DNA from: Escherichia coli O127:H6 str. E2348/69
Lineage (GTDB): Bacteria; Pseudomonadota; Gammaproteobacteria; Enterobacterales; Enterobacteriaceae
DNA: 64,000 nucleotides
Reading direction: 5' to 3' (one strand)
Assembly (NCBI RefSeq): GCF_000026545.1
Contig: NC_011601.1
Shown: positions 20,667 to 64,000 of the stretch, in pieces
Position numbering within the stretch: position 1 is the first letter of the stretch
Layout of the letters: every line of letters starts with the position of its first letter
Notes under the pieces: generated by a model
Seen by the model: the letters and a program-made list of their open reading frames with translations, nothing else
Database searches by the model: none
Told to the model about the DNA's origin: nothing
Made by a program: the position numbers and the translations under genes

Positions 20667-22630
<1,964 letters not shown>

Positions 22631-22708: not shown

Positions 22709-22918
22709 GCCGAATGTAGGCCGGATAAGGCGTTATACGCCGCATCCGGCAATCAATGCCGGATGCGACGCTGTCGCGTCTTATCAGGCCTACAGCCGTT
22801 GCCGAATGTAGGCCGGATAAGGCGTTCACGCCGCATCCGGCAACCAGCGCCTGATGCGCCGCTGTCGCGTCTTATCAGGCCTACAAACCGTTACCGACTC
22901 GCATCCGGCAATTGTGGG
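22709..22918. repeat. REP/BIME cluster: two tandem units of about 92 bp plus a partial third
   Basis: Repeated GCCGAATGTAGGCCGGATAAGGCGTT...CGCATCCGGCAA...CTTATCAGGCCTAC palindromic units between yjcH and acs. Confidence 0.9.
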
Positions 22919-47015: not shown

Positions 47016-49001
47016 TTAATTTGGGGTTACGATATTCACCCACAAATCGAAATTATCCAGACAGGCGATAATTTCTTCCAGTTTCGCGCCATTGCCAATA
47101 ATTTTGGCTTTCTTCGCTTTCACCAGATCGGCCATTTTTGCCTGTCCGGTCAGCACGGCGTGCAGATCTTCACGGCTGATGTAGAAAGAGGCGTCAGCTT
47201 GCGGTTGCAGTGTTTTACGGTAGTTAAGCACGCTATTGTTGAGTGAGAGGTTCAGGTTATCGTTGTCAGAGAGATTGAAGTTCAGGCTGATGGATTTGCC
47301 CGCGGCTTTCTCACTGTCCAGACGAACAGCCATGTAATCAAACAGCATCTCGACAGTCATACTCTTGATAGTGTCAGGAGAGGCGGTGCTGGCGTGTTCG
47401 ATTTTCTTCACGCCCTCACGAAGTTCTTTCGCTCCCGTCAGGTAGAAGCCGCGCCAGGTCGCTGATTCGGCCTGATAACCCAGTTGTTCGAAGGTATCGG
47501 CCTGTAGGTTTTTCGCCACCTGGTCTCCCGGATTGGCAGCAATCACCTGTTTCAGCAGTTCAGAGGCCCAGCGGTAGTCGCCCTGGTTATAGGCTTCACG
47601 CGCCAGATTGATAGCATGTGCGGAACCTCCCAGCGCTTTGACATAACGTTTACCCATATCGACCTGGCCATACGGATTCAGGTTTGCTGGGTTACCGTCG
47701 TAGTAGCCGAGGTAAAAGTTATATACCGCGCGAGCGTTATGACTGACGGAGCCATAATAGCCATGGCTGGCCCAGTTTTTATCCAGCGTTTCCGGCAGAT
47801 GAATCATGTTGCCGATTTCATTCATGGTGTAACCCTGGTTCGCCAGGTGCAGGGTTTGGTCGTGAATATACCTGATGGTGTCGCGATATTTTCCAATATA
47901 ATCATTGATATGCTGATTACCCCAGACCGGCCAGGTGTGCGGCATAAACAGTACTTCTGCTTGTGATCCCCACTTATCCAGCGTTTCGTTTAGGTAATTG
48001 GTCCACTTCGCGGTATCGCGGGTTTTCGCGCCACGCAGGGTGTAGAAGTTATGCAGGGTATGGGTGCTGTTTTCCGCTGTGCACAGGGCTTTCAACGCCG
48101 GAATATAGAGGTGCATTTCAGACGGCGCTTCGCTGCCTGGAGCCATCAGGAATTCGAAATCCAGCCCGTCGATATTGAGTTTCTCACCTGTCTTGGTGAT
48201 AGATCGCGTCGGCGCGATAATTGTCGGGTCGCCGGTAGTAAGCGTAACACCCAGCCCGTTGCCGATATCTCCCTGTGCATTATGCGGGAGTAGCAGGCCG
48301 TAAGAGTAAAATGCACGGCGACTCATGATATTACCCGCCAGCACGTTTTCACTGATGGCTTCGTCCATAAAGCCTGCCGGGGCGATGATCTGCACTTTGC
48401 CTGCTTTTACATCGGCTTCTGAGATAATACCTTTTACGCCGCCATAGTGGTCAGTGTGGCTGTGGGTGTAGATAACGGCCACAATCGGTTTTTGTGGGCG
48501 GTGTTTGAAATAGAGATTAAGGCTGGCTTTTGCTGCATTTGGCGTCACCAGCGGGTCAATGACGATGATGCCCGTATCACCTTCAATGAAGGTGATGTTC
48601 GAGATATCCTGGCTGCGCACCTGATACATGCGGTCGGTGACTTTAAACAGACCGGAGATGCCGTTTATCTGCGACTGACGCCACAGGCTGGGGTTTACGG
48701 TTTCCGGCGCAGCGGCATTAATATCAAATTTGTAATCGTCCGCGCGGTAGTAAACTTTACCGTTCGCATCACGCAGAATACCTTCATCCAGCAGCGGAGC
48801 GATAAATCCACGCTGCGCATCGTCAAAATCCTGACGATCGCTAAACGGTAATGATTTGGCGTAATTCTGATTAACCTGTTGGGTATATTGAGTGGCGGCT
48901 TTCGCTTCATCTGTTGCGTAAGCGGTATTTATCATCATGCCGCTGGCGGCAGTGAACGCAATAACAATCCTGCTCAAACGGAATAACCGAGAGTTATTCA
49001 T
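47016..49001 (-). CDS. yjcS: Metallo-beta-lactamase-fold alkyl/aryl sulfatase YjcS
   Basis: About 661 aa; signal peptide; HSHTDHYGG metal-binding motif. Confidence 0.9.
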
Positions 49002-51873: not shown

Positions 51874-53384
51874 GCCATAATCTCCTCTTCGCTCATGTCA
51901 TCGCGATTGGTCAGGATTTGCGTCAGTCGTCCTTCGCAGAACACGGCGATGCGGTCGCAGACGGTGATAATTTCAGGTAGTTCAGATGACACCATCAGGA
52001 TGACTTTTCCGTCGTCCGCCAGTTGGCGCATCACTTTGTAAATTTCGGCTTTCGCGCCAACGTCGATGCCACGGGTAGGTTCATCGAAAATGATCACTTC
52101 CGGGTGACAGCACAGCCATTTGGAGATCAGGACTTTCTGCTGATTCCCCCCGGAGAGTTCGGTGATATTCTGGTTTATCGAATGACATTTCAGCGCCAGC
52201 AGTTCGCGTTGATTTTCAGCGGTACGTTGCTCGTCAACTTCATGAAACAAGCCCATCGCGCCTTTATAGCCGCCGTCTTTCAGACTGCGGCTGATCGCCA
52301 TGTTCTGAGCGATGGAAAAGTTGGGGAAAAAACCGTTATCCCGGCGGCTTTCAGTGATGTAAGCCATCCCTTTTTTCACGGCATCCAGGGGTGAGCGTGG
52401 AGAGATATCTTTGTCATTAAGACGGATTTCTCCGCCAGCGCGTTTATCAACGCCAAACAGGCAGTTCATCAGTTCAGTACGTCCGGAACCGACCAGTCCG
52501 GCAAAGCCTAATATTTCTCCCCGGCAGACGCTAAATGAGATATCCCGGACCTTTTTTCTGTCACGGCTGGTGACGTTGCGCACCTCAAAAACCGTATCGT
52601 GCGCAAGGTTGCTGACATTCTCCTTCATCGCGTTAAAACGGTTTTGCAGTTCGCGGCCTACCATCAGACGGACGATATCGTCATTTGACACATCGCTCAC
52701 CATGCCGCTGCAAACGCTGCTGCCGTCTTTCATCACCGTATAGCGGTCGCAAATACGGCGAATTTCCGCCAACTTATGCGAGATATAGACGATGGCCGTA
52801 CCCTCTTTACGCAACTGATTCATGATCAGAAACAGATAGTCCACCTCTTTATTGGTGAGTGAGGAGGTGGGTTCATCCATGATGATGACTTTGGCGTCGA
52901 GCATCAGCGTTTTGGCAATTTCCAGCATCTGCTTGTGGCTGATAGATAAGTTCGCCACTTTCTCATCTAAATCAACTTTCAAGCCCACGCGTAATAACAT
53001 CATGGCGGCGCGGACACGCATTTCTCGCCAGTCGATAATATTGACGCCACAGATTTTTTTCGTCAGATGACGACCAATATATAAATTTTCCAGTACGGTT
53101 AATTCATCAATAACGCTGAGTTCCTGATAAATGATCCCGATACCGAGTTGTGTCGCTAATTTATGATCCAGCTTGTTATAGTTAATGTTATTAATGGTAA
53201 TGGTGCCTTTGGTTGGCTCATGTATTCCGGATAACACTTTCATTAGCGTGGATTTACCCGCGCCATTTTCTCCTAGTAATGCATGTATTTCACCAGGATA
53301 AACCGTTAAATTAACCGACTTTAATGCGTGAACCGGACCAAAGGACTTGCCGATCCCCGCCATCGATATATATGGCGTGGCCAT
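51852..53384 (-). CDS. alsA: D-allose ABC transporter ATP-binding protein AlsA (duplicated ABC ATPase)
   Basis: 510 aa with two Walker A motifs (GENGAGKST, GLVGSGRTE). Confidence 0.92.
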   Translation of the reverse strand: MATPYISMAGIGKSFGPVHALKSVNLTVYPGEIHALLGENGAGKSTLMKVLSGIHEPTKGTITINNINYNKLDHKLATQLGIGIIYQELSVIDELTVLENLYIGRHLTKKICGVNIIDWREMRVRAAMMLLRVGLKVDLDEKVANLSISHKQMLEIAKTLMLDAKVIIMDEPTSSLTNKEVDYLFLIMNQLRKEGTAIVYISHKLAEIRRICDRYTVMKDGSSVCSGMVSDVSNDDIVRLMVGRELQNRFNAMKENVSNLAHDTVFEVRNVTSRDRKKVRDISFSVCRGEILGFAGLVGSGRTELMNCLFGVDKRAGGEIRLNDKDISPRSPLDAVKKGMAYITESRRDNGFFPNFSIAQNMAISRSLKDGGYKGAMGLFHEVDEQRTAENQRELLALKCHSINQNITELSGGNQQKVLISKWLCCHPEVIIFDEPTRGIDVGAKAEIYKVMRQLADDGKVILMVSSELPEIITVCDRIAVFCEGRLTQILTNRDDMSEEEIMAWALPHE

Positions 53385-53416
53385 AAATAACCTCTCTGCA
53401 CGAAATATCGTATTAT

Positions 53417-53505
53417 TGCCTGATGGGCTACACTTATCAGGTCTACGTTCAGGTTATTTTGTTGGCCGGATAAGACACTTCATTAGCATCACTATCCGGC
53501 ATCAT
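53417..53505. repeat. REP-like palindromic elements between alsA and alsB
   Basis: GCCTGATGGGCTACACTTATCAGGTCTAC and GGCCGGATAAGACACTT...TCCGGCATCA motifs. Confidence 0.65.
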
Positions 53506-53511
53506 TCAGTT

Positions 53512-54447
53512 TTATTGAGTGACCAGGATTGAATCGACCAGTTTAAATTCCGGTGCTTTATCCAGCGGGATAACCTTGCCGGATTTCTCAGCGTCAACCA
53601 TCAGCTTCAGACCCGTTGCACCGATATCCGCCGGGTTCTGGGCAACCGTCGCGGTCATTTGTCCGGCTTCCACCATTTTGCGGGCTTCCGGAATTCCATC
53701 TGTACCGACGACCAACACTTTGCCCGTTTTTCCAGCGTTTGCGACTGCCTGAGCAACACCCATTGCCATCGTGTCATTCGCGCAATAGATCGCTTTAATA
53801 TTCGGATTACGTTGCAACACGTTAGTGGCGACATCCAGTGCTTTAATGCGGTCCCAGTCGGCAGGCTGGCTGGCGACAAGCTTGATCTGGCTTGCTTTTT
53901 TGAAGGCTTCGGTGGCACCATTACGACGCGCTTCACCGGAGGCGTTACCGGCTTTACCCTCAATGATTGCGACTTCACCCCCTTCGGCACCCAGCTTGTC
54001 AATAATCAATGACGCGCCTTTCGCCCCGACGGCAACATTATCGGTGGTGACAAAACCTTCCACATTACCGCCTGCTTTTTTCAGATTATCCATGTCGATT
54101 TTTTCATCGAGATTGACCAGATAAATGCCTTTTTTCCATGCGCGGGCAACAGGCATGACCAGGTTCACTGAGGATAATGGTGCGAAGGCGATACCTTTGT
54201 AATTTTTATTACTGAGATCTTCAAATAACTGCAATTGAGATTGAAAATCGCCTTCTGAAGGAGAGGCAAAAATATCAACGCTGACGCCCAGCGTTTTTGC
54301 TTCATCTTCAATGCCTTTTTTCATATCTACCCAAAATGGATTGGAGAGTGTTTTCAATACGACGGCATATTCGGCGGCAGCAAAAGCGCTGGTTGACAAC
54401 ATTAAGCCCACGAGTGTGCCGCTGAAATATTTCAGATATTTATTCAT
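53512..54447 (-). CDS. alsB: D-allose periplasmic binding protein AlsB
   Basis: 311 aa from MNKYLKYFSGTLVGLMLSTSAFA. Confidence 0.92.
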   Translation of the reverse strand: MNKYLKYFSGTLVGLMLSTSAFAAAEYAVVLKTLSNPFWVDMKKGIEDEAKTLGVSVDIFASPSEGDFQSQLQLFEDLSNKNYKGIAFAPLSSVNLVMPVARAWKKGIYLVNLDEKIDMDNLKKAGGNVEGFVTTDNVAVGAKGASLIIDKLGAEGGEVAIIEGKAGNASGEARRNGATEAFKKASQIKLVASQPADWDRIKALDVATNVLQRNPNIKAIYCANDTMAMGVAQAVANAGKTGKVLVVGTDGIPEARKMVEAGQMTATVAQNPADIGATGLKLMVDAEKSGKVIPLDKAPEFKLVDSILVTQ

Positions 54448-54505
54448 AATCATGTTCTCACGGTAAGGGGAGAGGTAACTCCGCGATGGCGGAATTACCT
54501 TTTTC

Positions 54506-55396
54506 TTATTTCAGCGCGCCTGGTGAGAAGAAATCAACAATTGCGCCGGTTTTTTGCATATTAATATTAGCTTGTTCAATGTTGAGCTGGGCGACAGAGA
54601 CAAAAAACGCGTCCAGCAAAGTCAGTTGTAATATTCTTGCCGAGGCATTACGACCTAATAACGGTGTTTCCGGGGCCGGTGAGCAAATAATATAATCGGC
54701 CAGCTTCGCTATTGGTGAATGATAGCTATGCGTTATACAAATAATCTTTGCCCCGTTCTTTTTTGCCAGTTCTACAGCCGCTTTTACATCACTGGTTCGC
54801 CCGGAATGGGTCACCACCAGCACCACATCTCCTTCCTGTAACAACGAAGCAGACATCATCATGATGTGAGCGTCCGGATAGGCCTGGCAGCGTACGCCAA
54901 TGCGCAAAAACTTGTGCTGTACATCAGCACAGATAGCATTTGATCCTCCGGCACCGTACAAATCCCGCTGTCTGGCCTGATAGAAAAAGCGGGCGGCACG
55001 GTGGATCTCATCAACGTTGACGATCGACTGACCTTCCATAATGGTGCGTAAAGTGATGTTAAATACCTTATTCACCACATCCTGCGGCGCTTCATCAAAA
55101 GCCAACTCGGAAGGCAATACTTGTTCTGACTGAGAAAAATAATCTTCCAGCGCACTGCGTAAGTTACGAAAGCCGCTAAACCCCAGCAGCTTTGATACCT
55201 TAACGATCATCGCTTCAGATACCGCCAGAGCTTCTGCGACATCTTTAATTGCGGGTGCACAACTCAGGTTACCGGGTTTGAGTAACCACTCCACGATGCG
55301 GCTTTCGTTTTCTGTCATTCCTTCCTGCTTCATTCGCAGGTAAGGCGCTAACCCGATACCGTTCGGAAGCGCTGAATCAAACTCTGACTGGCTCAT
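54506..55396 (-). CDS. rpiR: RpiR/AlsR transcriptional repressor (HTH + SIS domain)
   Basis: About 296 aa from MSQSEFDSALPNGIGLAPYL; track start 55429 is an extension. Confidence 0.88.
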   Translation of the reverse strand: MSQSEFDSALPNGIGLAPYLRMKQEGMTENESRIVEWLLKPGNLSCAPAIKDVAEALAVSEAMIVKVSKLLGFSGFRNLRSALEDYFSQSEQVLPSELAFDEAPQDVVNKVFNITLRTIMEGQSIVNVDEIHRAARFFYQARQRDLYGAGGSNAICADVQHKFLRIGVRCQAYPDAHIMMMSASLLQEGDVVLVVTHSGRTSDVKAAVELAKKNGAKIICITHSYHSPIAKLADYIICSPAPETPLLGRNASARILQLTLLDAFFVSVAQLNIEQANINMQKTGAIVDFFSPGALK

Positions 55397-55749
55397 CACG
55401 TTCTCTTGTCCTTGAATTGAAGACGCCACTATATCACCACAGCAAGAACAGAAAAGATGCTGGCAACTTCACAAAAAAATAAAATTTATAAAGTTTGTTT
55501 TGTTGTGAATAATGGAGAGTGGCTTAAAATTTCATTTAATCACTTTAAAAACATGATGTTATTTGTTTTTCTGGTTTATTGGATGATAGATGTTGCTGGA
55601 TAGTGAGTGTCTTTAACGCTATTGCGCTGCCAGATGTAACTCTGTAAAACAGATCAGGAAGGCGGATTTCATCGATTTTGGGTGTTTTTAATTCATTTAC
55701 ATCACAAATGTTTTTTTATTGTGAAGTTTTGCGCGGGCGGGGAAGATGA

Positions 55750-56199
55750 ATGAAAAAGATTGCATTTGGCTGTGATCATGTCGGTTTCATTTTAAAACAT
55801 GAAATAGTGGCACATTTAGTTGAGCGTGGCGTTGAAGTGATTGATAAAGGAACCTGGTCGTCAGAGCGTACTGATTATCCGCATTACGCCAGTCAAGTCG
55901 CACTGGCCGTTGCTGGCGGAGAGGCTGATGGCGGGATTTTGATTTGTGGCACTGGCGTCGGTATTTCGATAGCGGCGAACAAGTTTGCCGGAATTCGCGC
56001 GGTCGTTTGTAGCGAACCTTATTCCGCGCAACTTTCGCGGCAGCATAACGACACCAACGTGCTGGCTTTTGGTTCAAGAGTGGTTGGCCTCGAACTGGCA
56101 AAAATGATTGTCGATGCGTGGCTGGGCGCACAGTACGAAGGCGGTCGTCATCAACAACGCGTGGAGGCGATTACGGCAATAGAGCAGCGGAGAAATTGA
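55750..56199 (+). CDS. rpiB: Ribose-5-phosphate isomerase B / allose-6-phosphate isomerase RpiB
   Basis: 149 aa; MKKIAFGCDHVGFILKHEIVAHL... Confidence 0.95.
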   Translation: MKKIAFGCDHVGFILKHEIVAHLVERGVEVIDKGTWSSERTDYPHYASQVALAVAGGEADGGILICGTGVGISIAANKFAGIRAVVCSEPYSAQLSRQHNDTNVLAFGSRVVGLELAKMIVDAWLGAQYEGGRHQQRVEAITAIEQRRN

Positions 56200-56267
56200 G
56201 ATTCATCCACTACTTGCATGGATGAGTAATGACTAATGTGGATAGAGTTTCTTTTTGAGGTTGGCTA

Positions 56268-56597
56268 ATGAAACGCTTTCCGCTATTTCTTTTATTCACC
56301 CTGTTCACGCTGTCCACCGTTCCGGCCCAGGCCGATATTATCGATGACACCATTGGCAATATTCAGCAGGCGATTAACGACGCTTATAACCCTGACCGTG
56401 GGCGAGACTATGAAGATTCGCACGACGACGGCTGGCAGCGTGAAGTGAGCGACGATCGGCGCAGACAATATGACGACCGCCGCCGCCAGTTTGAAGATCG
56501 CCGCAGGCAGCTGGACGATCGCCAGCGCCAGCTGGATCAGGAGCGTCGGCAGCTAGAAGATGAAGAGCGGAGAATGGAAGATGAGTATGGGCGGTGA
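56268..56597 (+). CDS. yjdP: Small secreted low-complexity protein YjdP
   Basis: 109 aa; signal peptide then charged D/E-RRRQ heptad-like repeats. Confidence 0.75.
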   Translation: MKRFPLFLLFTLFTLSTVPAQADIIDDTIGNIQQAINDAYNPDRGRDYEDSHDDGWQREVSDDRRRQYDDRRRQFEDRRRQLDDRQRQLDQERRQLEDEERRMEDEYGR

Positions 56598-56631
56598 TGT
56601 TGAGTTTAGAGCAGGCATCGCCCCTCACCCA

Positions 56632-57390
56632 TCACGCCACCCCAATCTCCATCCCATCAAACCCCGCCTCAAACCCCGACGGCAGTGCGTTTTCCATCAG
56701 CCACGCATCAAACTGGTGGTTGATATGGGTCAGAATCACCCGTGGCGAGCGGATAACCTGATTCAGCGCAAGCACGGTATTTAAATCACAGTGATTACGC
56801 GGTGCATCCTCGCGCGGCGGGTGGCTGCAATCAATCACCATTACCTGCGGCTGATTATTGCGTAAAAATTTCAGCGTTTTTTCCGGCAAGCCAGCGGTGT
56901 CAGACAGCCACGCCACCCGGCTGTGTGCCGTTTCCAGCAGATAACCGAAGGTCAGTTTTGAGTGGTTGAGCGGCAGGGGCGTGACCTGTAACCCCTGTAA
57001 ATCAAACACCACAAACGGTTCCATCGTGTGGCTGAAATCAAGCAGGCCCGGATGTTTAAACAGATCGTCGCAGCCCTGTTCATCCGGCGGGCCGTAGACC
57101 GGGATCTGATCGCCCACGCCCCAGCGCAGCGGAAACAGCCCCTGGACGTGATCCATATGATAATGCGTCAGCAAAAACTGCTGGAACGATCCGGGAGACC
57201 AGCGATCGGCGAGATCGTGCAGCCCGGCGTCGATCAGGGTGATCGCCCCGTTAAACTTCACTACGCCGCTGCACGGCTGGCGGCGATACTGCGGTGAGCG
57301 CAGCGCTCTGACGCAGGCTACGCACTCGCAGCCCCATGCCGGAACGCCCTGTGCGCCGCTGGTGCCGGTGAGCGTGAGGGTCAGGCTCAT
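56632..57390 (-). CDS. phnP: Phosphoribosyl 1,2-cyclic phosphate phosphodiesterase PhnP (metallo-beta-lactamase fold)
   Basis: 252 aa from [23 protein letters not shown]; HYHMDH motif. Confidence 0.92.
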
Positions 57391-57391
57391 A

Positions 57392-57826
57392 TTACAGCGC
57401 CTTGGTGAAGCGGAAGTGGCTCTGCTCGTAGCCTTCACGCAGGTAAAAACGGTGCGCGTCGTGGCGCTTGACGTTGGTGGAAAGCTCGGTCATTTCGGCC
57501 CCAGCCTGGCGGGCTTCTTCTTCTGCCCATGCCAGTAATTTACTGCCGACGTTCAGACCGCGTGCCTGCGGCATCACCACCAGTTCCTGAATTTCGCCGA
57601 TCCAGTTGACATGATGCAGATGAAACTGCAAATGCAGGCCGATCATGCCGACAACCTCGCCATCCAACAGCGCCAGATGGTAGCGCATATTCGGGTCACG
57701 CAGGTTGGCGTTAAAGCCCACGCGAAACGCCTGGTGGTCAAACTCCGCTTGTTTTAGCTCACAAATCAGCGCGTAAACCGCGTCGGTGTCGTACTGCGTT
57801 GCCGGGCGAAGCTCACAAGCAGGCAT
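57392..57826 (-). CDS. phnO: Aminoalkylphosphonate N-acetyltransferase PhnO (GNAT)
   Basis: 144 aa. Confidence 0.92.
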
Positions 57827-58370
57827 GGTGTTTCTCCTTCTGATGAATCAGCGTCAGCAGCGTGTCGACCGACTGGCGCAGGCTGCCGTCATTATTGAGC
57901 GTAAGACAATCCTGAGGAGTATAGCGGGCAGCGCGCGCCAGCCGGGCGTTAATTTCACTGGCATTTTCACGACCACGGTTTTCCAGGCGCTGGCGCAGGA
58001 TCTCTGGCGAAACCTGTAAACAAACGGGCAGCAGCGCCGATTGATAGCGCGCCCGCGCCTGCGGCAGATGGGCGCGTGAGCCGTTGACCACCACGTCAAA
58101 TCCAGCGTGCAGCCAGAGGTCAATCTCGACGCCGACGCCATAATACAGACCGTTAGCGTGCCAGCTTAAGGCCAGAAGGTTCTGCCCCGCGCGGGTAAAA
58201 AACTCCTGCTCGCTCAGGGCGATATGGTTTTCACTTCCGGCGCTGGCGGCGCGCGTGATGTAGCGATGCGCTACCAGTAGCTGAGTTTGTTCCCGCTGGC
58301 GGAGTTCCGTCAACAGACTGTCTTTTCCGGAGCCAGAGGCCCCCATTAACCAAATCAGTTTTCCCGTCAT
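57813..58370 (-). CDS. phnN: Ribose 1,5-bisphosphate phosphokinase PhnN
   Basis: 185 aa; P-loop GASGSGKDS. Confidence 0.92.
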
Positions 58371-59506
58371 CAGAACACCCTTTTACCCTGACGCCAAACG
58401 TGGTCGATATGAATGTGGTTGCCCTTGCGATGCGCCAGCACCAGGTCGGCGCGTTTGCCCTCGCCAATCACCCCACGATCCTGGAGATTCAGTGCCTGGG
58501 CCGGGTTTTTGGTCACCAGCCTCACCGCCTGCGGCAGCGTAAAGCGGTTGCTCTGGTCATCGGCCACGCGAAACGCCGCATCCAGCAGGCTGGCGGGGTA
58601 GTAGTCGGAAGAGAGGATATCCAGCAGGCCAAGCTGCGCCAGTTCACTGGCCGCCACGTTGCCGGAGTGCGAACCGCCGCGCACGATATTCGGCGCGCCC
58701 ATCAGTACGTTCATGCCGTGCTTGCGCGAGGCTTCTGCCGCTTCGAATGTGGTAGGAAATTCGGCGATCACGCTGCCAAGCTGATGGGATTGGGCTACGT
58801 GGGCGTGCGTGGCGTCATCGTGGCTGGCGAGCGCAATGTGTCGCGCGCGGCACATTGCGGCGATGGATTCGCGATTCGGCTGTGACCAGCGTGCGGCGAG
58901 CGCCAGTTGCTCCTCTTCGTACTGTTGCATCTGCGCATCGGTGAGCGAGTATTTGCCCTGATAATATTCACGATATTTTTCGCGGTTGGCGAACTGGCGC
59001 TGGCCCGGTGAGTGATCCATCAGCGACACCAGCGTTACCGGTTCGCGCTGTACCAGTTTTTCAAACAGCGGCAGCGTGGTGTGATGCGGCAGTTCGCAGC
59101 GCAGGTGCAGACGGTGCTCGGCACGGTTGACGCCGCGTTTCTGCGTCTCTTCGATGGCGTTGATCATCTTCTCCAGATTCTCCAGCCGATCGCCGCCGTC
59201 GCGTACATCACCAATCGCCACGGCGTCCAGCACGGTGGTGATGCCGCTCGCCACCATCAGCGCGTCGTGGCTGCTCATCGCCGAGTGGGCAGGCCAGTCA
59301 ACTTTCGGGCGCGGGGTGAAGAATTTATCCAGATTATCGGTATGCAGCTCAATCAGCCCCGGTAGCAGCCAGCCGCCTTCGCCGTCCATTGCTTCTGACA
59401 GGTGACTCTGGCTTTCGGCAAAGGCGCGGATTTCGCCGTCCTGCATCTCCAGAGAACCGTGTACCACCTCGTTTTCCAGCACCAGTTTGACGTTATTGAT
59501 AATCAT
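58370..59506 (-). CDS. phnM: RPnTP diphosphatase PhnM (amidohydrolase fold)
   Basis: 378 aa. Confidence 0.92.
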
Positions 59507-60183
59507 GAAGAGACTCCCATTGGGTGCAGGCGGTCGGCGACTTGCTCGCGTACGGCTTCGTCATGGAAGATACCGACGATGGCCGCGCCGCGGGCTTTGG
59601 CTTTGCGGATCAGTTCCACTACGGCGGCGCTGTTTTTAGCGTCCAGCGAGGCGGTAGGTTCGTCGAGCAGCAGAATGGGGTAGTCGACGATAAAGCCGCG
59701 GGCGATGTTGACACGCTGTTGTTCGCCGCCGGAGAAGGTCGATGGTGCCAGGTGCCACAGACGTTCCGGCACGTTCAGGCGCGTGAGCAGACGCGCGGCT
59801 TTAGCGGCACAGGCTTCACGCGGTACGCCGGTATCGAGCAGCGGCTGCATCACCACTTCCAGTGCCGAAATACGCGGGATGACGCGCAGAAACTGGCTTA
59901 CCCAGCCGACAGTGGTTTTGCGGATCTCCACCACTTTGCGTGCTGGCGCGGTGACCAGGTCGACCCATTCATCACCGTGTTTGATCTGGATTTGCCCTTC
60001 GTCGGGTAGATAGTTGGCATACAGCGAGCGTAGCAAAGTTGATTTTCCACTGCCGGAATGGCCGTGGAGTACCACGCATTCGCCGGCGTTGACGGTGAGT
60101 GAGGCGCCTTGTAATACAGGCAGGCGCACGCCGTTTTGCTGGTGCAGGATAAAGGTTTTACTGACGTTTTGTACGTTAATCAT
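59503..60183 (-). CDS. phnL: C-P lyase system ATPase PhnL
   Basis: 226 aa from [11 protein letters not shown]; Walker [10 protein letters not shown]; track ORF extends upstream through a REP and is rejected. Confidence 0.92.
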
Positions 60184-60200
60184 TTTTCGCCTCGTGGTTC

Positions 60201-60290
60201 GGGTGTCGGATGCGACGCTGATGCGTCTTATCCGACCTACGGGGAGCGCATTTGTAGGCCGGATAAGGTGTTTACGCCGCATCCGGCACC
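60201..60290. repeat. REP element between phnK and phnL
   Basis: GGATGCGACGCTGATGCGTCTTATCCGACCTAC ... TGTAGGCCGGATAAGG ... CGCATCCGGCA. Confidence 0.85.
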
Positions 60291-60293
60291 GGC

Positions 60294-61052
60294 TCAATTC
60301 TGCAAAACCGATGACACCAGCAACTGGGTATACGGATGGTGTGGGTCGTCGAGCACGCGGTCAGTTAACCCACTCTCCACCACTTTCCCTTGCTTCATTA
60401 CCAGCAAACGGTCCGCCAGCAGACGGGCGACGCCTAAATCGTGGGTGACAATCACTACCGCCAGGTTAAGCTCCATCACCAGACCGCGGAGCAGGTCCAG
60501 CAGGCGCGCCTGTACCGACACATCCAGCCCGCCAGTGGGTTCATCCATAAACACCAGCTTCGGATGCGTCACCAGGTTGCGGGCAATCTGCAAACGTTGC
60601 TGCATGCCGCCGGAAAAGGTGGTCGGCAGGTCGTCGATACGGTTAGCGGGAATCTCCACCTCTTCCAGCCACTTCTGCGCGGTGGCGCGAATATCGCCGT
60701 AATGACGCGCTCCGGTTGCCATCAACCGTTCGCCGATATTGCCGCCTGCCGACACCTGGCGGCGCAGGCCGTCAAGCGGATGCTGATGTACCACACCCCA
60801 TTCGGTGCGCAGCAGGCGACGGCGGTCGGCCTCGCTCATCGCATACAGCGAACGGTTCTCGTAGCGAATTTCCCCTTGCTGTGGCGTCAGGCGGGCGGAA
60901 ATTGATTTCAGTAGCGTGGTCTTCCCGGAACCGGACTCCCCAACAATGCCCAGAACTTCTCCCGGCCATAAATCAAAAGAGACATCGCTGAAACCTTTGC
61001 CCGGGGCATAAAGGTGGGTCAGGTTATTGACCGAAAGTAACGGTTGATTCAT
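60294..61052 (-). CDS. phnK: C-P lyase system ATPase PhnK
   Basis: 252 aa from [15 protein letters not shown]; Walker [10 protein letters not shown]. Confidence 0.92.
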
Positions 61053-61894
61053 TGGCTTTTGGCCTCGCTCTGTTGGCGGCAATAATCGGTATCGGAGCAG
61101 ACAAACATGCGGTTTCCGGCGTCATCCAGCACCACTTCATCAAGATAGCTGTGGGTCGATCCGCAGATGGCGCATGGTTCATCCCACTGCTGGACGGTGA
61201 ACGGATGATCATCGAAATCGAGGCTTTCCACGCGGGTAAACGGTGGCACGGCATAGATGCGCTTCTCGCGCCCCGCGCCAAACAGTTGCAGGGCGGGCAT
61301 CATGTCCATTTTCGGGTTATCGAATTTCGGGATCGGCGACGGGTCCATTACGTAGCGCCCGTTCACCTTCACCGGATAGGCGTAGGTGGTGGCGATATGA
61401 CCGAAGCGGGCGATATCTTCATACAGTTTCACCTGCATCACGCCGTACTCCTCCAGCGCGTGCATGGTGCGCGTTTCCGTCTCTCGCGGCTCAATAAAGC
61501 GCAGCGGTTCGGGGATCGGCACCTGGAAGATAACTATCTGATCTTCGGTCAGCGGCGTTTCGGGTATGCGGTGACGCGTCTGGATAAGTGTCGCATCGTC
61601 CGTGCGCTCGGTGGTGTTCACCCCGGTCACGCGCTTAAAGAAGTTACGAATCGACACGGCGTTGGTGGTGTCGTCTGCGCCCTGGTCAATCACCTTCAAC
61701 ACGTCGCTTTCGCCAATCACGCTGGCGGTGAGCTGAATGCCGCCGGTTCCCCAGCCGTAGGGCATCGGCATCTCGCGTCCGCCAAACGGCACCTGATAAC
61801 CGGGGATTGCCACCGCTTTTAAGATAGCGCGGCGGATCATGCGTTTGGTCTGCTCGTCGAGGTAAGCAAAGTTGTAGCCGCTCAGATTAGCCAT
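61049..61894 (-). CDS. phnJ: C-P lyase catalytic subunit PhnJ
   Basis: 281 aa from MANLSGYNFAYLDEQTKRMIRRAILKAV; four-Cys cluster near the C-terminus; track ORF start rejected. Confidence 0.92.
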   Translation of the reverse strand: MANLSGYNFAYLDEQTKRMIRRAILKAVAIPGYQVPFGGREMPMPYGWGTGGIQLTASVIGESDVLKVIDQGADDTTNAVSIRNFFKRVTGVNTTERTDDATLIQTRHRIPETPLTEDQIVIFQVPIPEPLRFIEPRETETRTMHALEEYGVMQVKLYEDIARFGHIATTYAYPVKVNGRYVMDPSPIPKFDNPKMDMMPALQLFGAGREKRIYAVPPFTRVESLDFDDHPFTVQQWDEPCAICGSTHSYLDEVVLDDAGNRMFVCSDTDYCRQQSEAKSQ

Positions 61895-62951
61895 GGTTCT
61901 GCTCCTGTTGCAGACGTTTGAGTAGCTCCAGTTCGGCCTGGAAATCGACGTAGTGCGGGAGTTTGAGATGCGAAACAAAGCCTGCGGCTTCGACGTTGTC
62001 GGCATGGGCCAGCACGAACTCTTCATCCTGTGCCGGACCTGTTGCGTACTCGCCGTATTCCGGTGCCTGCAACGCACGGTCAACCAGCGCCATCGCCATT
62101 GCTTTGCGCTCGCTCATGCCGAACACCAGCCCATAGCCGCGTGTAAAATGCGGTGGTTCATCCGGCGGGTCGATAAAACCGTTGACCATTTCACACTCGG
62201 TCATCAACAATTCGCCGACGTTCACCGCAAATCCCAGCTCTTCCGGCACAATAAATATATCGATATAGCCACTGCGAATTTCGCCTGCGAACGGGTGATT
62301 GCGCCCGTAACCGCGTTGGGTGGAGTAGGCCAGCGCCAACAAATAGCCTTCGTCACCGCGCATTAATTGTTGTAGACGGGAAGAACGCGAACAGGGATAA
62401 ACCGGCGGCGTGCGGGTGATGTCGTCCGGTTGTGCGCCGCTATCTTCTTCAAACTTCGCCAGCCCCTGACGCGCCAGCAGGCTGAAGACGTGTGGCGACG
62501 GTTGCTGTTCGCTGTCAGCGGTGGTCAGCGTTGGCGTTTCGCCGTTTGCCAGCAGGGTGAAATCGAGCAGGCGATGGGTGTAGTCGTAGGTGGGGCCAAG
62601 CAGTTGGCCGCCGGGAATGTCTTTATAAATTGCTGAAATACGCCGTTCTAGACGCATCCCGGTGGTGTCGAGCGGCTCACTGACCGCCAGCTTCGCCAGC
62701 GTGGTGCGGTAGGCGCGCAACAGGAAAATCGCTTCGACGTTATCGCCGCTGGCCTGTTTCAGCGCCAGCGCGGCCAGCTCGCGGTCGGCAATACCGCCTT
62801 CGGTCATCACGCGATCTACCGCGAGGTTAAGCTGCTGTTCAATCTGGGCGACGCTCAGTTCAGGCAAATCAGTATCGCCCCGGCGTCGGCTCTCTTGCAG
62901 GGCGTGGGCGGCGTCGATCGCCTTTTCGCCCCCTTTCACGGCAACGTACAT
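61887..62951 (-). CDS. phnI: C-P lyase core subunit PhnI
   Basis: About 354 aa from [12 protein letters not shown]; 1-nt TGATG overlap with phnH. Confidence 0.92.
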   Translation of the reverse strand: MYVAVKGGEKAIDAAHALQESRRRGDTDLPELSVAQIEQQLNLAVDRVMTEGGIADRELAALALKQASGDNVEAIFLLRAYRTTLAKLAVSEPLDTTGMRLERRISAIYKDIPGGQLLGPTYDYTHRLLDFTLLANGETPTLTTADSEQQPSPHVFSLLARQGLAKFEEDSGAQPDDITRTPPVYPCSRSSRLQQLMRGDEGYLLALAYSTQRGYGRNHPFAGEIRSGYIDIFIVPEELGFAVNVGELLMTECEMVNGFIDPPDEPPHFTRGYGLVFGMSERKAMAMALVDRALQAPEYGEYATGPAQDEEFVLAHADNVEAAGFVSHLKLPHYVDFQAELELLKRLQQEQNHG

Positions 62952-63535
62952 CAGCACACCTCCACATGAGTGGTTCGCGGAATAGCCAGCAGGCGCTCGC
63001 CGCAGGTCAGGATCAGGTCGATGCCGAGCGGGAACGGGTGCGGGCGCTCGGTAAGTTCATGAAGAATGCACTTTGGCAGTTGCGGGGCGATCATCCGTTC
63101 TTCGGCAATACCTGCGCCGGTGAGGCGCAACATACGCCCACCGCTCAGGCTGGTGACCTGTAAAATCAGCGTTGCGCCCGCTTCTGGTGCAACGGCAGTG
63201 CCGGTGGAAAGGGCGTTGAGCTGCTCGCTGGAGATCGCCTCATCTGTTACCGCGAAGGTCGCCTGTTTCGGCTGATTAACCAGCGGCGCGTTGGTATGAA
63301 AACGCAGGCTCTGATTGACGATATCGTTGCTCAATGGTGCGGCAAGCCACACCGGCGTGTCGTTATCGGCCAGCGTCAGCAGCACGCTGGTGGTGGCGAT
63401 ATTCAGCGGCTGCCAGCCGCGCTTGAGCTGATGCAGGGCGACAATCACGCCCGGCTCGCTCATGGCCTTTAACAGGCGACGAAAACTGTGCTGGGCATCC
63501 TGCACGGGAAGCATAAAAGCGGTTTCCAGGGTCAT
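62951..63535 (-). CDS. phnH: C-P lyase core subunit PhnH
   Basis: 194 aa; ATGA overlap with phnG. Confidence 0.92.
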
Positions 63536-63984
63536 GCGTTGTCTCCGCGAACCATCGTAAAGAAGTCGACCCGGCTGGCGTTCACTTCGGCCTGACGCGC
63601 GGCAATGCGTGCCATACGGTTAGCGTCCAGCGGGGCAATAAGGGTTTCTGATAAGTTTTGAAAATGGCGGGTTTGCTGCATCAGCGCGTCAATCAGCGCG
63701 CAGCGTTCGGCGTGCTGTTTGTCGCGCCCCAGTACCCAGCTATAGCCGAGTGTGCCGTCAGTCAGACGCACGGCGGCGCGGGTGAGCGTGGCGTCGCCAG
63801 CAAAAAAGCGTTCGCCGGTGCCGCCCATTCGCGCCTGAATCTGCACCAGGCCAGTTTCAGCGGCGCGGATCACCTCATAATCGGCGTTGATGTTCAGCGC
63901 CTTCAGGCGGGCTGCCAGTTCAGCCGGTTGGCTGTGCGCCAGCACGGACATCCAGTGCTGGCGGGTCGCGGTATCTGCGTGCAT
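63532..63984 (-). CDS. phnG: C-P lyase core subunit PhnG
   Basis: 150 aa; start at 63984, 16 nt from the window end. Confidence 0.9.
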
Positions 63985-64000
63985 TCAGTGCTCCATAGTG

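Follow-up and report, generated by a model that had tools for sequence, protein, structure and literature searches.

The DNA analyzed here (hereafter, the window) is a 64,000-nt stretch that was 100% identical to the genome of Escherichia coli O127:H6 E2348/69. All ten genes from phnG to phnP (10/10) were detected at its right-hand end in the canonical order and on one strand (minus), running from position 63984 down to 56632 (Table 1). The gene names are those of the RefSeq annotation of the identical record, and they are matched by full-length protein family hits above the curated cut-offs for all ten proteins, i.e., NCBIfam equivalogs for PhnG, H, K, L, M, N, O, and P and Pfam families for PhnI and PhnJ, the two for which no NCBIfam match was obtained at E ≤ 1e-10. 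The gene identities proposed in an earlier note, which was made from the letters of the window, thus agree with both the RefSeq names and the NCBIfam/Pfam matches, all of which lie far above the cut-offs. The span that it gave for phnG-P (59503–63984) has to be corrected, as it covers only phnL to phnG (6 of the 10 genes); phnM-P lie at 56632–59506 and the full segment at 56632–63984. Its placement of phnC-F beyond the window holds for phnC-E, but not for phnF, the last 16 nt of which are inside. At the other end, phnP is the final gene of the operon and is convergent with yjdP.

Table 1 Features of the phn segment in the window.
Feature	Coordinates	Strand	Evidence or remark
phnF (regulator), last 16 nt	63985..64000	-	stop TGA 63985-63987 directly abuts phnG ATG
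phnG, 150 aa, C-P lyase core complex subunit	63532..63984	-	TIGR03293 178.5 bits vs cut-off 89; PF06754
phnH, 194 aa, core complex subunit	62951..63535	-	TIGR03292 205 bits
phnI, 354 aa, core complex subunit (ribose 1-methylphosphonate 5-triphosphate synthase/nucleosidase)	61887..62951	-	PF05861 510 bits, residues 1-350
phnJ, 281 aa, radical-SAM subunit cleaving C-P bond	61049..61894	-	PF06007 502 bits
phnK, 252 aa, ABC-type ATPase of complex	60294..61052	-	TIGR02323 411 bits
phnK-phnL intercistronic gap, 110 nt, two inverted REP elements (BIME)	60184..60293	-	hairpin, inverted arms, REP stem pattern
phnL, 226 aa, second ABC-type ATPase	59503..60183	-	TIGR02324 371 bits, model position 1 = Met1
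phnM, 378 aa, RPnTP diphosphatase (amidohydrolase fold)	58370..59506	-	NF011981 805 bits
phnN, 185 aa, ribose 1,5-bisphosphokinase	57813..58370	-	NF007485 354 bits
phnO, 144 aa, aminoalkylphosphonate N-acetyltransferase	57392..57826	-	NF007530 315 bits
phnP, 252 aa, phosphoribosyl cyclic phosphodiesterase (metallo-beta-lactamase fold)	56632..57390	-	TIGR03307 421 bits

For the roles of the proteins in the pathway we relied on PMC10574752 and PMC9947105. According to these, PhnI, with PhnG, PhnH, and PhnL, joins the phosphonate to ATP at the ribose, and pyrophosphate is released by PhnM. PhnJ performs the radical-SAM cleavage of the C-P bond within a Phn(GHIJ)2 core, on which the ATPases PhnK and PhnL act as a remodelling pair. 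PRPP is made from the cyclic ribosyl phosphate by PhnP and PhnN, and PhnO acetylates 1-aminoalkylphosphonates. The catalytic and interface residues inspected in PhnJ, PhnK, and PhnL were those named in PMC9947105. PhnJ retains its radical-SAM set (Gly32 and the four C-terminal cysteines Cys241/244/266/272) as well as E149 and Y158. PhnK has a Walker A motif at 38, an LVFMDE motif with the catalytic E171, and Y15, R78, R82, Q90, R116, Y118, D170, and H204, of which R78/R82/R116/Y118 are in contact with PhnJ. In PhnL the Walker A motif is at 41 and an ILLLDE motif includes the catalytic E175, and the HxHxDH motif of PhnP is intact (HYHMDH at 76–81).

All ten reading frames start with ATG and contain no internal stops. 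For the concatenated phn genes of E2348/69 and K-12, dN/dS was 0.051 and dS was 0.25, a substitution pattern that shows strong purifying selection on phnG-P. The highest dN/dS of the set (0.26) was that of PhnP, which differs from K-12 by 11 substitutions, and PhnM has 10 missense changes. The earlier description of these genes as intact is upheld by the K-12 protein lengths, by the 1–11 substitutions per protein, none of them at a checked residue, and by the overall dN/dS of 0.05. Among complete E. coli genomes, 5386 of 5426 carry phnG-P at ≥80% coverage, and at this core locus E2348/69 has an intact allele of the typical kind. With high confidence, the comparison of sequences identifies 56632–63984 (minus strand) as the last ten genes, phnGHIJKLMNOP, of the classical phnCDEFGHIJKLMNOP operon (14 genes) in strain E2348/69 (EPEC O127:H6), intact and with the junction architecture of K-12.

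Inspection of the junctions base by base confirmed exactly the seven overlaps that had been reported (7/7). Those of phnG/H, phnJ/K, and phnL/M are 4 nt long (ATGA), those of phnH/I and phnM/N 1 nt (TGATG), that of phnI/J 8 nt (ATGGCTAA), and that of phnN/O 14 nt. Start and stop thus overlap or abut at seven of the nine phnG-P junctions, and phnF and phnG abut as well. The reading frames of phnG-P are indeed uninterrupted, as had been described, but their overlaps do not form one continuous chain, which is broken by the 110-nt gap between phnK and phnL and by a 1-nt gap between phnO and phnP. Junction spacing is identical in K-12 at all nine junctions, and the overlaps are taken to be conserved rather than due to chance because this identity has persisted despite a synonymous divergence of 0.25.

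Overlaps of 1 and 4 nt (TGATG, ATGA) have the classical termination-reinitiation geometry, and from this geometry we infer that the phn cistrons may be translationally coupled. The overlaps would permit coupling within two blocks, phnF/G-H-I-J-K and phnL-M-N-O(-P), which the REP hairpin at the phnK/phnL junction would keep apart. Coupling cannot apply at phnK/phnL itself because of the 110-nt REP-filled gap. Alternatively, each cistron may have a ribosome-binding site of its own and be translated independently of its neighbors, with the overlaps reflecting mere genome compaction, which we consider possible but not probable. Purine-rich Shine-Dalgarno-like motifs (GGAG, GGAGG, AGGAG, GAGG, GGGAG, AGGAG) precede the start codons of phnH, I, J, K, L, M, and O by 6–10 nt, so that most cistrons have one of their own, which is equally compatible with this alternative, and phnL, 110 nt past phnK, clearly must start on its own. 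However, the termination-reinitiation geometry is unchanged between K-12 and E2348/69 despite the dS of 0.25, and the weak Shine-Dalgarno-like sequences at phnN (AAAGGG) and phnP (AAGG) favor a reliance on upstream ribosomes. Independent initiation and coupling are not mutually exclusive.

The gap between phnK and phnL is filled by two extragenic REP copies located inside the transcription unit and inverted relative to each other, together forming a larger hairpin. REP-1 (60254–60287) begins 6 nt past the phnK stop, and REP-2 (60205–60240) is followed by the phnL Shine-Dalgarno sequence (GAGG). The hairpin has a predicted folding energy of -53.1 kcal/mol (z = -6.1), and none of 200 shuffled sequences folded as well. 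A REP stem pattern with a variable loop, an imperfect palindrome of the conserved stem halves (GATGCG ... CTTATC), had six matches in the window versus 0.08 expected, two of them in the gap (60209–60232 on the plus strand and 60262–60283 on the minus strand). Neither gap copy matched the 37-nt REP consensus of fixed spacing with up to three mismatches, because the loop lengths differ. A scan of 55000–64000 against Rfam (E ≤ 1) placed the REP-derived naRNA4 in the gap at 39, 31, and 27 bits, below its gathering score of 59.5, and detected no other RNA family. Upstream of phnL, its frame runs on without a stop across both REPs as far as a TTG at 60297, which shares bases with the stop codon of phnK, giving a candidate PhnL of 264 aa; this longer form was ruled out, as position 1 of the PhnL equivalog model falls on the annotated Met1 (60183) and the added residues would be translated from the REPs.

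An alignment of 161 bases across the gap has two substitutions between E2348/69 and K-12, and the REP-filled layout is kept in K-12 and, among complete E. coli genomes, in about 89%. In about 10% of E. coli genomes a different palindromic repeat occupies the site; the presence of an unrelated palindrome points either to selection favoring a strong hairpin of one kind or another at this junction or simply to no other junction in phnF-P tolerating insertions. According to one statement in PMC12306157 (citing Liang et al. 2015), REPs less than 16 nt from a stop were reported to lower the translation of the gene that precedes them, and the 6-nt distance of REP-1 from the phnK stop is inside that range. 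It is conceivable, though rather improbable, that the REP pair past phnK acts as a functional divider of the operon, stalling ribosomes that terminate on phnK and/or shielding the phnC-K mRNA from 3' exonucleases. Were this so, the PhnK:PhnL ratio would be determined by the pair, and phnLMNOP would be expressed at a lower level than the core-complex genes.

In K-12 the phn operon has a Pho-regulated promoter upstream of phnC that is active under phosphate starvation. The 132 nt upstream of phnC in the identical genome record are the same as in K-12 (132/132), whereas the strict Pho-box consensus had no match there within three mismatches; Pho control is therefore presumed from the identity of the region to the K-12 promoter, and not from a motif match. 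Consensus scans of 56000–64000 for internal promoters and terminators revealed no excess over shuffled sequences (2 vs 3.0 and 8 vs 8.3, respectively), and a single 14-gene phn transcript has been described in K-12 under phosphorus starvation (PMC3734233).

As the earlier note anticipated, phnE is outside the window and could not be assessed from it. The check that it proposed, inspection of the 8-bp repeat to the right of the window, was made in the identical genome record (20732–21511), where the unit is present in two copies versus three in K-12, so that the K-12 insertion is absent and phnE is in frame and open over 259 codons. In K-12, phnE is restored when one 5'-GCTGGCGT unit is deleted, and the gene is functional in most E. 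coli isolates (PMC6469041). The annotation of the E2348/69 record gives phnC, D, E, and F as intact genes. With phnE and the phnC promoter region intact as well, the genome content predicts that E2348/69 should be Phn+, unlike K-12. It should thus be able to obtain phosphorus from phosphonates with no need of a prior slippage reversion in phnE, the predicted substrates being methylphosphonate, 2-aminoethylphosphonate, and, via PhnO, aminomethylphosphonate.

The pathway could nevertheless be inactive with all reading frames open, owing to a missense change (e.g., among the 11 in PhnP or the 10 in PhnM) or to a defect elsewhere (transport, PhoBR). Intact phnG-P genes are no guarantee of a Phn+ phenotype, given that K-12 is cryptic despite having them (PMC6469041), and the elevated dN/dS of PhnP is in line with such a loss; our literature search retrieved no paper naming E2348, phosphonate, and phnC together and no report of an E2348/69 phosphonate phenotype. 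We regard inactivity as very unlikely, however, considering the intact annotation of phnC-F, the phnE without the 8-bp insertion, the promoter region identical to that of K-12, and the presence of all catalytic residues checked, and the low overall dN/dS speaks against relaxed selection. That the genes only look intact because of an artefact of assembly or sequence, with consensus errors masking real frameshifts of the kind for which resequencing had been proposed as a check, can be practically dismissed, as three separate E2348/69 assemblies (NZ_CP059840.2, NZ_LT827011.1, and NZ_LT903847.1) are all 100% identical over 52000–64000 and the gene lengths equal those of K-12 and another B2-like strain.

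Few operons of E. coli are as well characterised as that of the phn C-P lyase, with its sequence, genetics, biochemistry, and cryo-EM structures all described. The phnG-P genes of E2348/69 are an ordinary, well-studied E. coli C-P lyase set, already known and with nothing new, and they have little consequence past correct annotation.

Compared with phnGHIJKLMNOP of K-12 MG1655 (b4101–b4092), the E2348/69 segment has the same ten genes, order, strand, protein lengths, and 110-nt REP-filled gap between phnK and phnL. Nucleotide identity between the two is 92–97%, with mostly synonymous differences and 1–11 amino-acid substitutions per protein. They differ in that K-12 has a palindromic repeat of ~112 bp between yjdP and phnP that E2348/69 lacks, and in that the K-12 phnE is a pseudogene with a third 8-bp unit that is absent from the E2348/69 gene. 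E2348/69 resembles the Phn+ operon of E. coli B type, which has an in-frame phnE, a likeness drawn by 8-bp repeat count only. The two inverted REPs between phnK and phnL, forming a stable mRNA hairpin, are similar to other intercistronic REP/BIME elements, e.g., those of malE-malF and nrdA-nrdB. With respect to the solved Phn(GHIJKL)2 complex (PDB 4XB6 and 7Z15–7Z19), the residues of the PhnJ-PhnK interface and of ATPase catalysis are present in E2348/69, and its PhnJ aligns with the E. coli chains 7z15_D/4xb6_D over residues 1–281 with 2–3 substitutions. The differences from the C-P lyase structures are strain-level substitutions only, none of them at the named functional positions.

The ten distal genes of the 14-gene C-P lyase operon (phnCDEFGHIJKLMNOP) were placed using the RefSeq annotation of the E2348/69 record NZ_LT827011.1 (L001), which is identical to the window over 52000-64000 and reaches past its right edge (window coordinate = L001 coordinate + 43,999). 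phnG-P occupies 56632-63984, and the span of 59503-63984 claimed for it in the earlier note covers phnL to phnG only (6/10 genes). The final 16 nt of phnF also lie inside the window, from 63985, with the remainder past the right edge, and the phnF stop codon immediately adjoins the phnG ATG. When translated from the window, all ten genes began with ATG, had no internal stops and encoded proteins of the same lengths as in the reference strain K-12 MG1655 (10/10), confirming that phnG-P is intact, as had been claimed. Frameshifts on resequencing, named in the note as grounds for rejection, did not emerge: positions 52000-64000 are 100% identical to three independent assemblies of E. coli O127:H6 E2348/69, NZ_LT827011.1 among them. 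At least 80% of the segment was found in 5386 of 5426 complete E. coli genomes, and phnG-P is core E. coli DNA.

Genes (RefSeq annotation), junctions and REP elements of phnG-P in E2348/69, in window coordinates
Feature	Coordinates	Strand	Description	Sequence
phnP	56632-57390	-	252 aa, ATG	
O/P junction			1-nt gap	TAATATG
phnO	57392-57826	-	144 aa, ATG	
N/O junction			14-nt overlap	ATGCCTGCTTGTGA
phnN	57813-58370	-	185 aa, ATG	
M/N junction			1-nt overlap	TGATG
phnM	58370-59506	-	378 aa, ATG	
L/M junction			4-nt overlap	ATGA
phnL	59503-60183	-	226 aa, ATG	
K/L junction	60184-60293		110-nt gap, REP pair	
REP-2	60240 down to 60205		reverse-oriented; mRNA strand	GTAGGTCGGATAAGACGCATCAGCGTCGCATCCGAC
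REP-1	60287 down to 60254		mRNA strand	GCCGGATGCGGCGTAAACACCTTATCCGGCCTAC
phnK	60294-61052	-	252 aa, ATG	
J/K junction			4-nt overlap	ATGA
phnJ	61049-61894	-	281 aa, ATG	
I/J junction			8-nt overlap	ATGGCTAA
phnI	61887-62951	-	354 aa, ATG	
H/I junction			1-nt overlap	TGATG
phnH	62951-63535	-	194 aa, ATG	
G/H junction			4-nt overlap	ATGA
phnG	63532-63984	-	150 aa, ATG	

Eight of the proteins (PhnG, H, K, L, M, N, O and P) gave full-length matches to NCBIfam equivalog models, far over the curated cut-offs. PhnI and PhnJ had no NCBIfam match at E ≤ 1e-10, and each matched a Pfam family over nearly the whole protein (PF05861, 510 bits, and PF06007, 502 bits, respectively). Against the E. coli PhnJ structures (chains 7z15_D and 4xb6_D), PhnJ aligned along residues 1-281 and differed by 2-3 substitutions. 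Relative to K-12, the phnG-P proteins carry 1-11 substitutions each, none at the functionally important residues named in a cryo-EM study (PMC9947105), i.e., PhnJ G32, E149, Y158 and C241/244/266/272, PhnK Y15, R78, R82, Q90, R116, Y118, D170, E171 and H204, and PhnL E175, every one of which is retained in E2348/69. The Walker A motifs and the PhnP HxHxDH motif are also intact. The dN/dS against K-12 (Nei-Gojobori) was 0.051 for the ten genes concatenated, and 0.017 to 0.082 for individual genes, save phnP (0.26).

In K-12 under phosphate starvation, the 14 phn genes form a single transcription unit (PMC3734233). PhnI together with PhnG, H and L yields ribose-1-phosphonate-5-triphosphate, PhnM takes off pyrophosphate, cleavage of the C-P bond falls to PhnJ with its SAM-dependent radical chemistry, the cyclic product is converted to PRPP via PhnP and PhnN, and PhnO acetylates 1-aminoalkylphosphonates (PMC10574752). 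The core complex is remodelled by PhnK and PhnL, which act together as a dual ABC ATPase (PMC9947105). At the level of the genes, we show that E2348/69 has an intact capacity for all C-P lyase pathway steps.

Inspection of the junctions showed that the seven overlaps listed in the earlier note (G/H, H/I, I/J, J/K, L/M, M/N and N/O) are all exact. Contrary to the note, the chain of overlaps is not uninterrupted from phnG to phnP, being broken by the gap between phnK and phnL; this junction and O/P were absent from the note's description. Spacing is the same in K-12 at every junction despite a synonymous divergence of 0.25 between the strains, which indicates that the junction architecture is conserved, not accidental. 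Overlaps of the ATGA and TGATG type would make termination-reinitiation coupling possible, and we infer from their geometry that it may be permitted within phn(F)GHIJK and within phnLMNO(P), where it would help to match the amounts of complex subunits. Because SD-like motifs also precede most phn cistrons, coupling and independent initiation are inseparable by sequence. The interpretation of phnG-P offered in the note is supported, with translational coupling as its inferred part.

The phnK-phnL gap is filled by two inverted REP elements (a BIME), which would divide the operon into phn(F)GHIJK and phnLMNO(P) blocks. The REP stem pattern occurs six times in the window (0.08 expected), two of the occurrences being this pair, and the repeat finder also reported the arms of the inverted pair. 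The gap folds into one long hairpin (-53.1 kcal/mol, z = -6.1), and Rfam gave only sub-threshold matches here, to the REP-derived naRNA4 model. A further BIME with the same stem pattern, consisting of four alternating REP copies, lies at 22724-22876.

Gap and flanks differ from K-12 at 2 positions in 161 aligned bases. With a 310-bp query that had the gap at its centre, 4840 of 5426 complete E. coli genomes (~89%) gave a match of ≥80% coverage, and the REP pair occupies the gap in these as it does in E2348/69 and K-12. In ~10% of genomes the match was split in two; strain EC19 is an example, with a gap of 176 nt (159-334 of the stretch examined, L005) taken up by a palindromic repeat of an unrelated kind (CCCCTCACCCC...GGGGAGAGGGTTAGGGTGAGGGG). 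The junction appears to be the sole insertion-tolerant spot inside phnF-P. REP-1 begins 6 nt past the phnK stop, and REPs <16 nt from a stop are reported, in PMC12306157 citing Liang et al. 2015, to lower translation of the upstream gene; REP-1 is within this range and may act in this way on phnK.

The phnL frame is open upstream across the whole REP pair, as far as a TTG that shares bases with the stop codon of phnK, giving a mechanical ORF of 264 aa (59503-60297, minus strand). This longer PhnL was rejected and the annotated start stands, because the first position of the PhnL HMM aligns to the annotated Met1 (60183). The open frame through the REP pair looks coincidental.

Beyond the window, phnC, D, E and F are each annotated as intact in L001. 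The earlier note was right that the window gives no means of judging phnE, which lies outside it. Its proposed check for the 8-bp repeat insertion that makes K-12 cryptic (PMC6469041) was run on L001: the alignment of the phnE region with K-12 has one gap only, of 8 columns, with two units in E2348/69 (GCTGGCGT GCTGGCGC) and three in K-12 (GCTGGCGT GCTGGCGT GCTGGCGC), and the insertion is absent. The yjdN-phnC interval (L001 23447-23578, 132 nt) is identical to the Pho-regulated promoter region of K-12 (132/132). The strict Pho-box consensus CTGTCATAWAWCTGTCAY had no match within 3 mismatches in this interval upstream of phnC, and the phnC Pho box evidently fits the consensus poorly. The phnD-phnE gap (L001 21512-21616) also contains two inverted REPs, with a near-identical counterpart in K-12, so REPs fill at least two junctions of the operon (D/E and K/L).

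Synonymous divergence from K-12 was higher in phnG-O (dS 0.18-0.34) than in the flanking alsR, phnC and yjdN (0.10-0.14), and gene-by-gene identity to the close relative FDAARGOS_1283 was patchy (phnO 96.3%, phnL 96.6%, phnJ 99.9%), which points to weak codon bias, recombination mosaicism or both in the phn region. As judged by identity, yjcS (alkyl/aryl-sulfatase, 47016-49001) is a strongly divergent allele, 85.6% identical to that of FDAARGOS_1283, and the divergence is limited to this one gene, with neighbouring genes at 97-99%.

Between the convergent genes yjdP and phnP lie 34 nt in E2348/69 (56598-56631) but 146 nt in K-12 (2199-2344 of the K-12 stretch, L002); the ~112 bp that K-12 has in addition form a palindromic repeat of the kind seen in the EC19 phnK-phnL gap. 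In the phn system itself, genes, order, lengths and junctions are all the same as in K-12, and every sequence-level membership feature of the C-P lyase gene set that we tested was found in E2348/69 phnG-P, which is the reference system itself in another strain.
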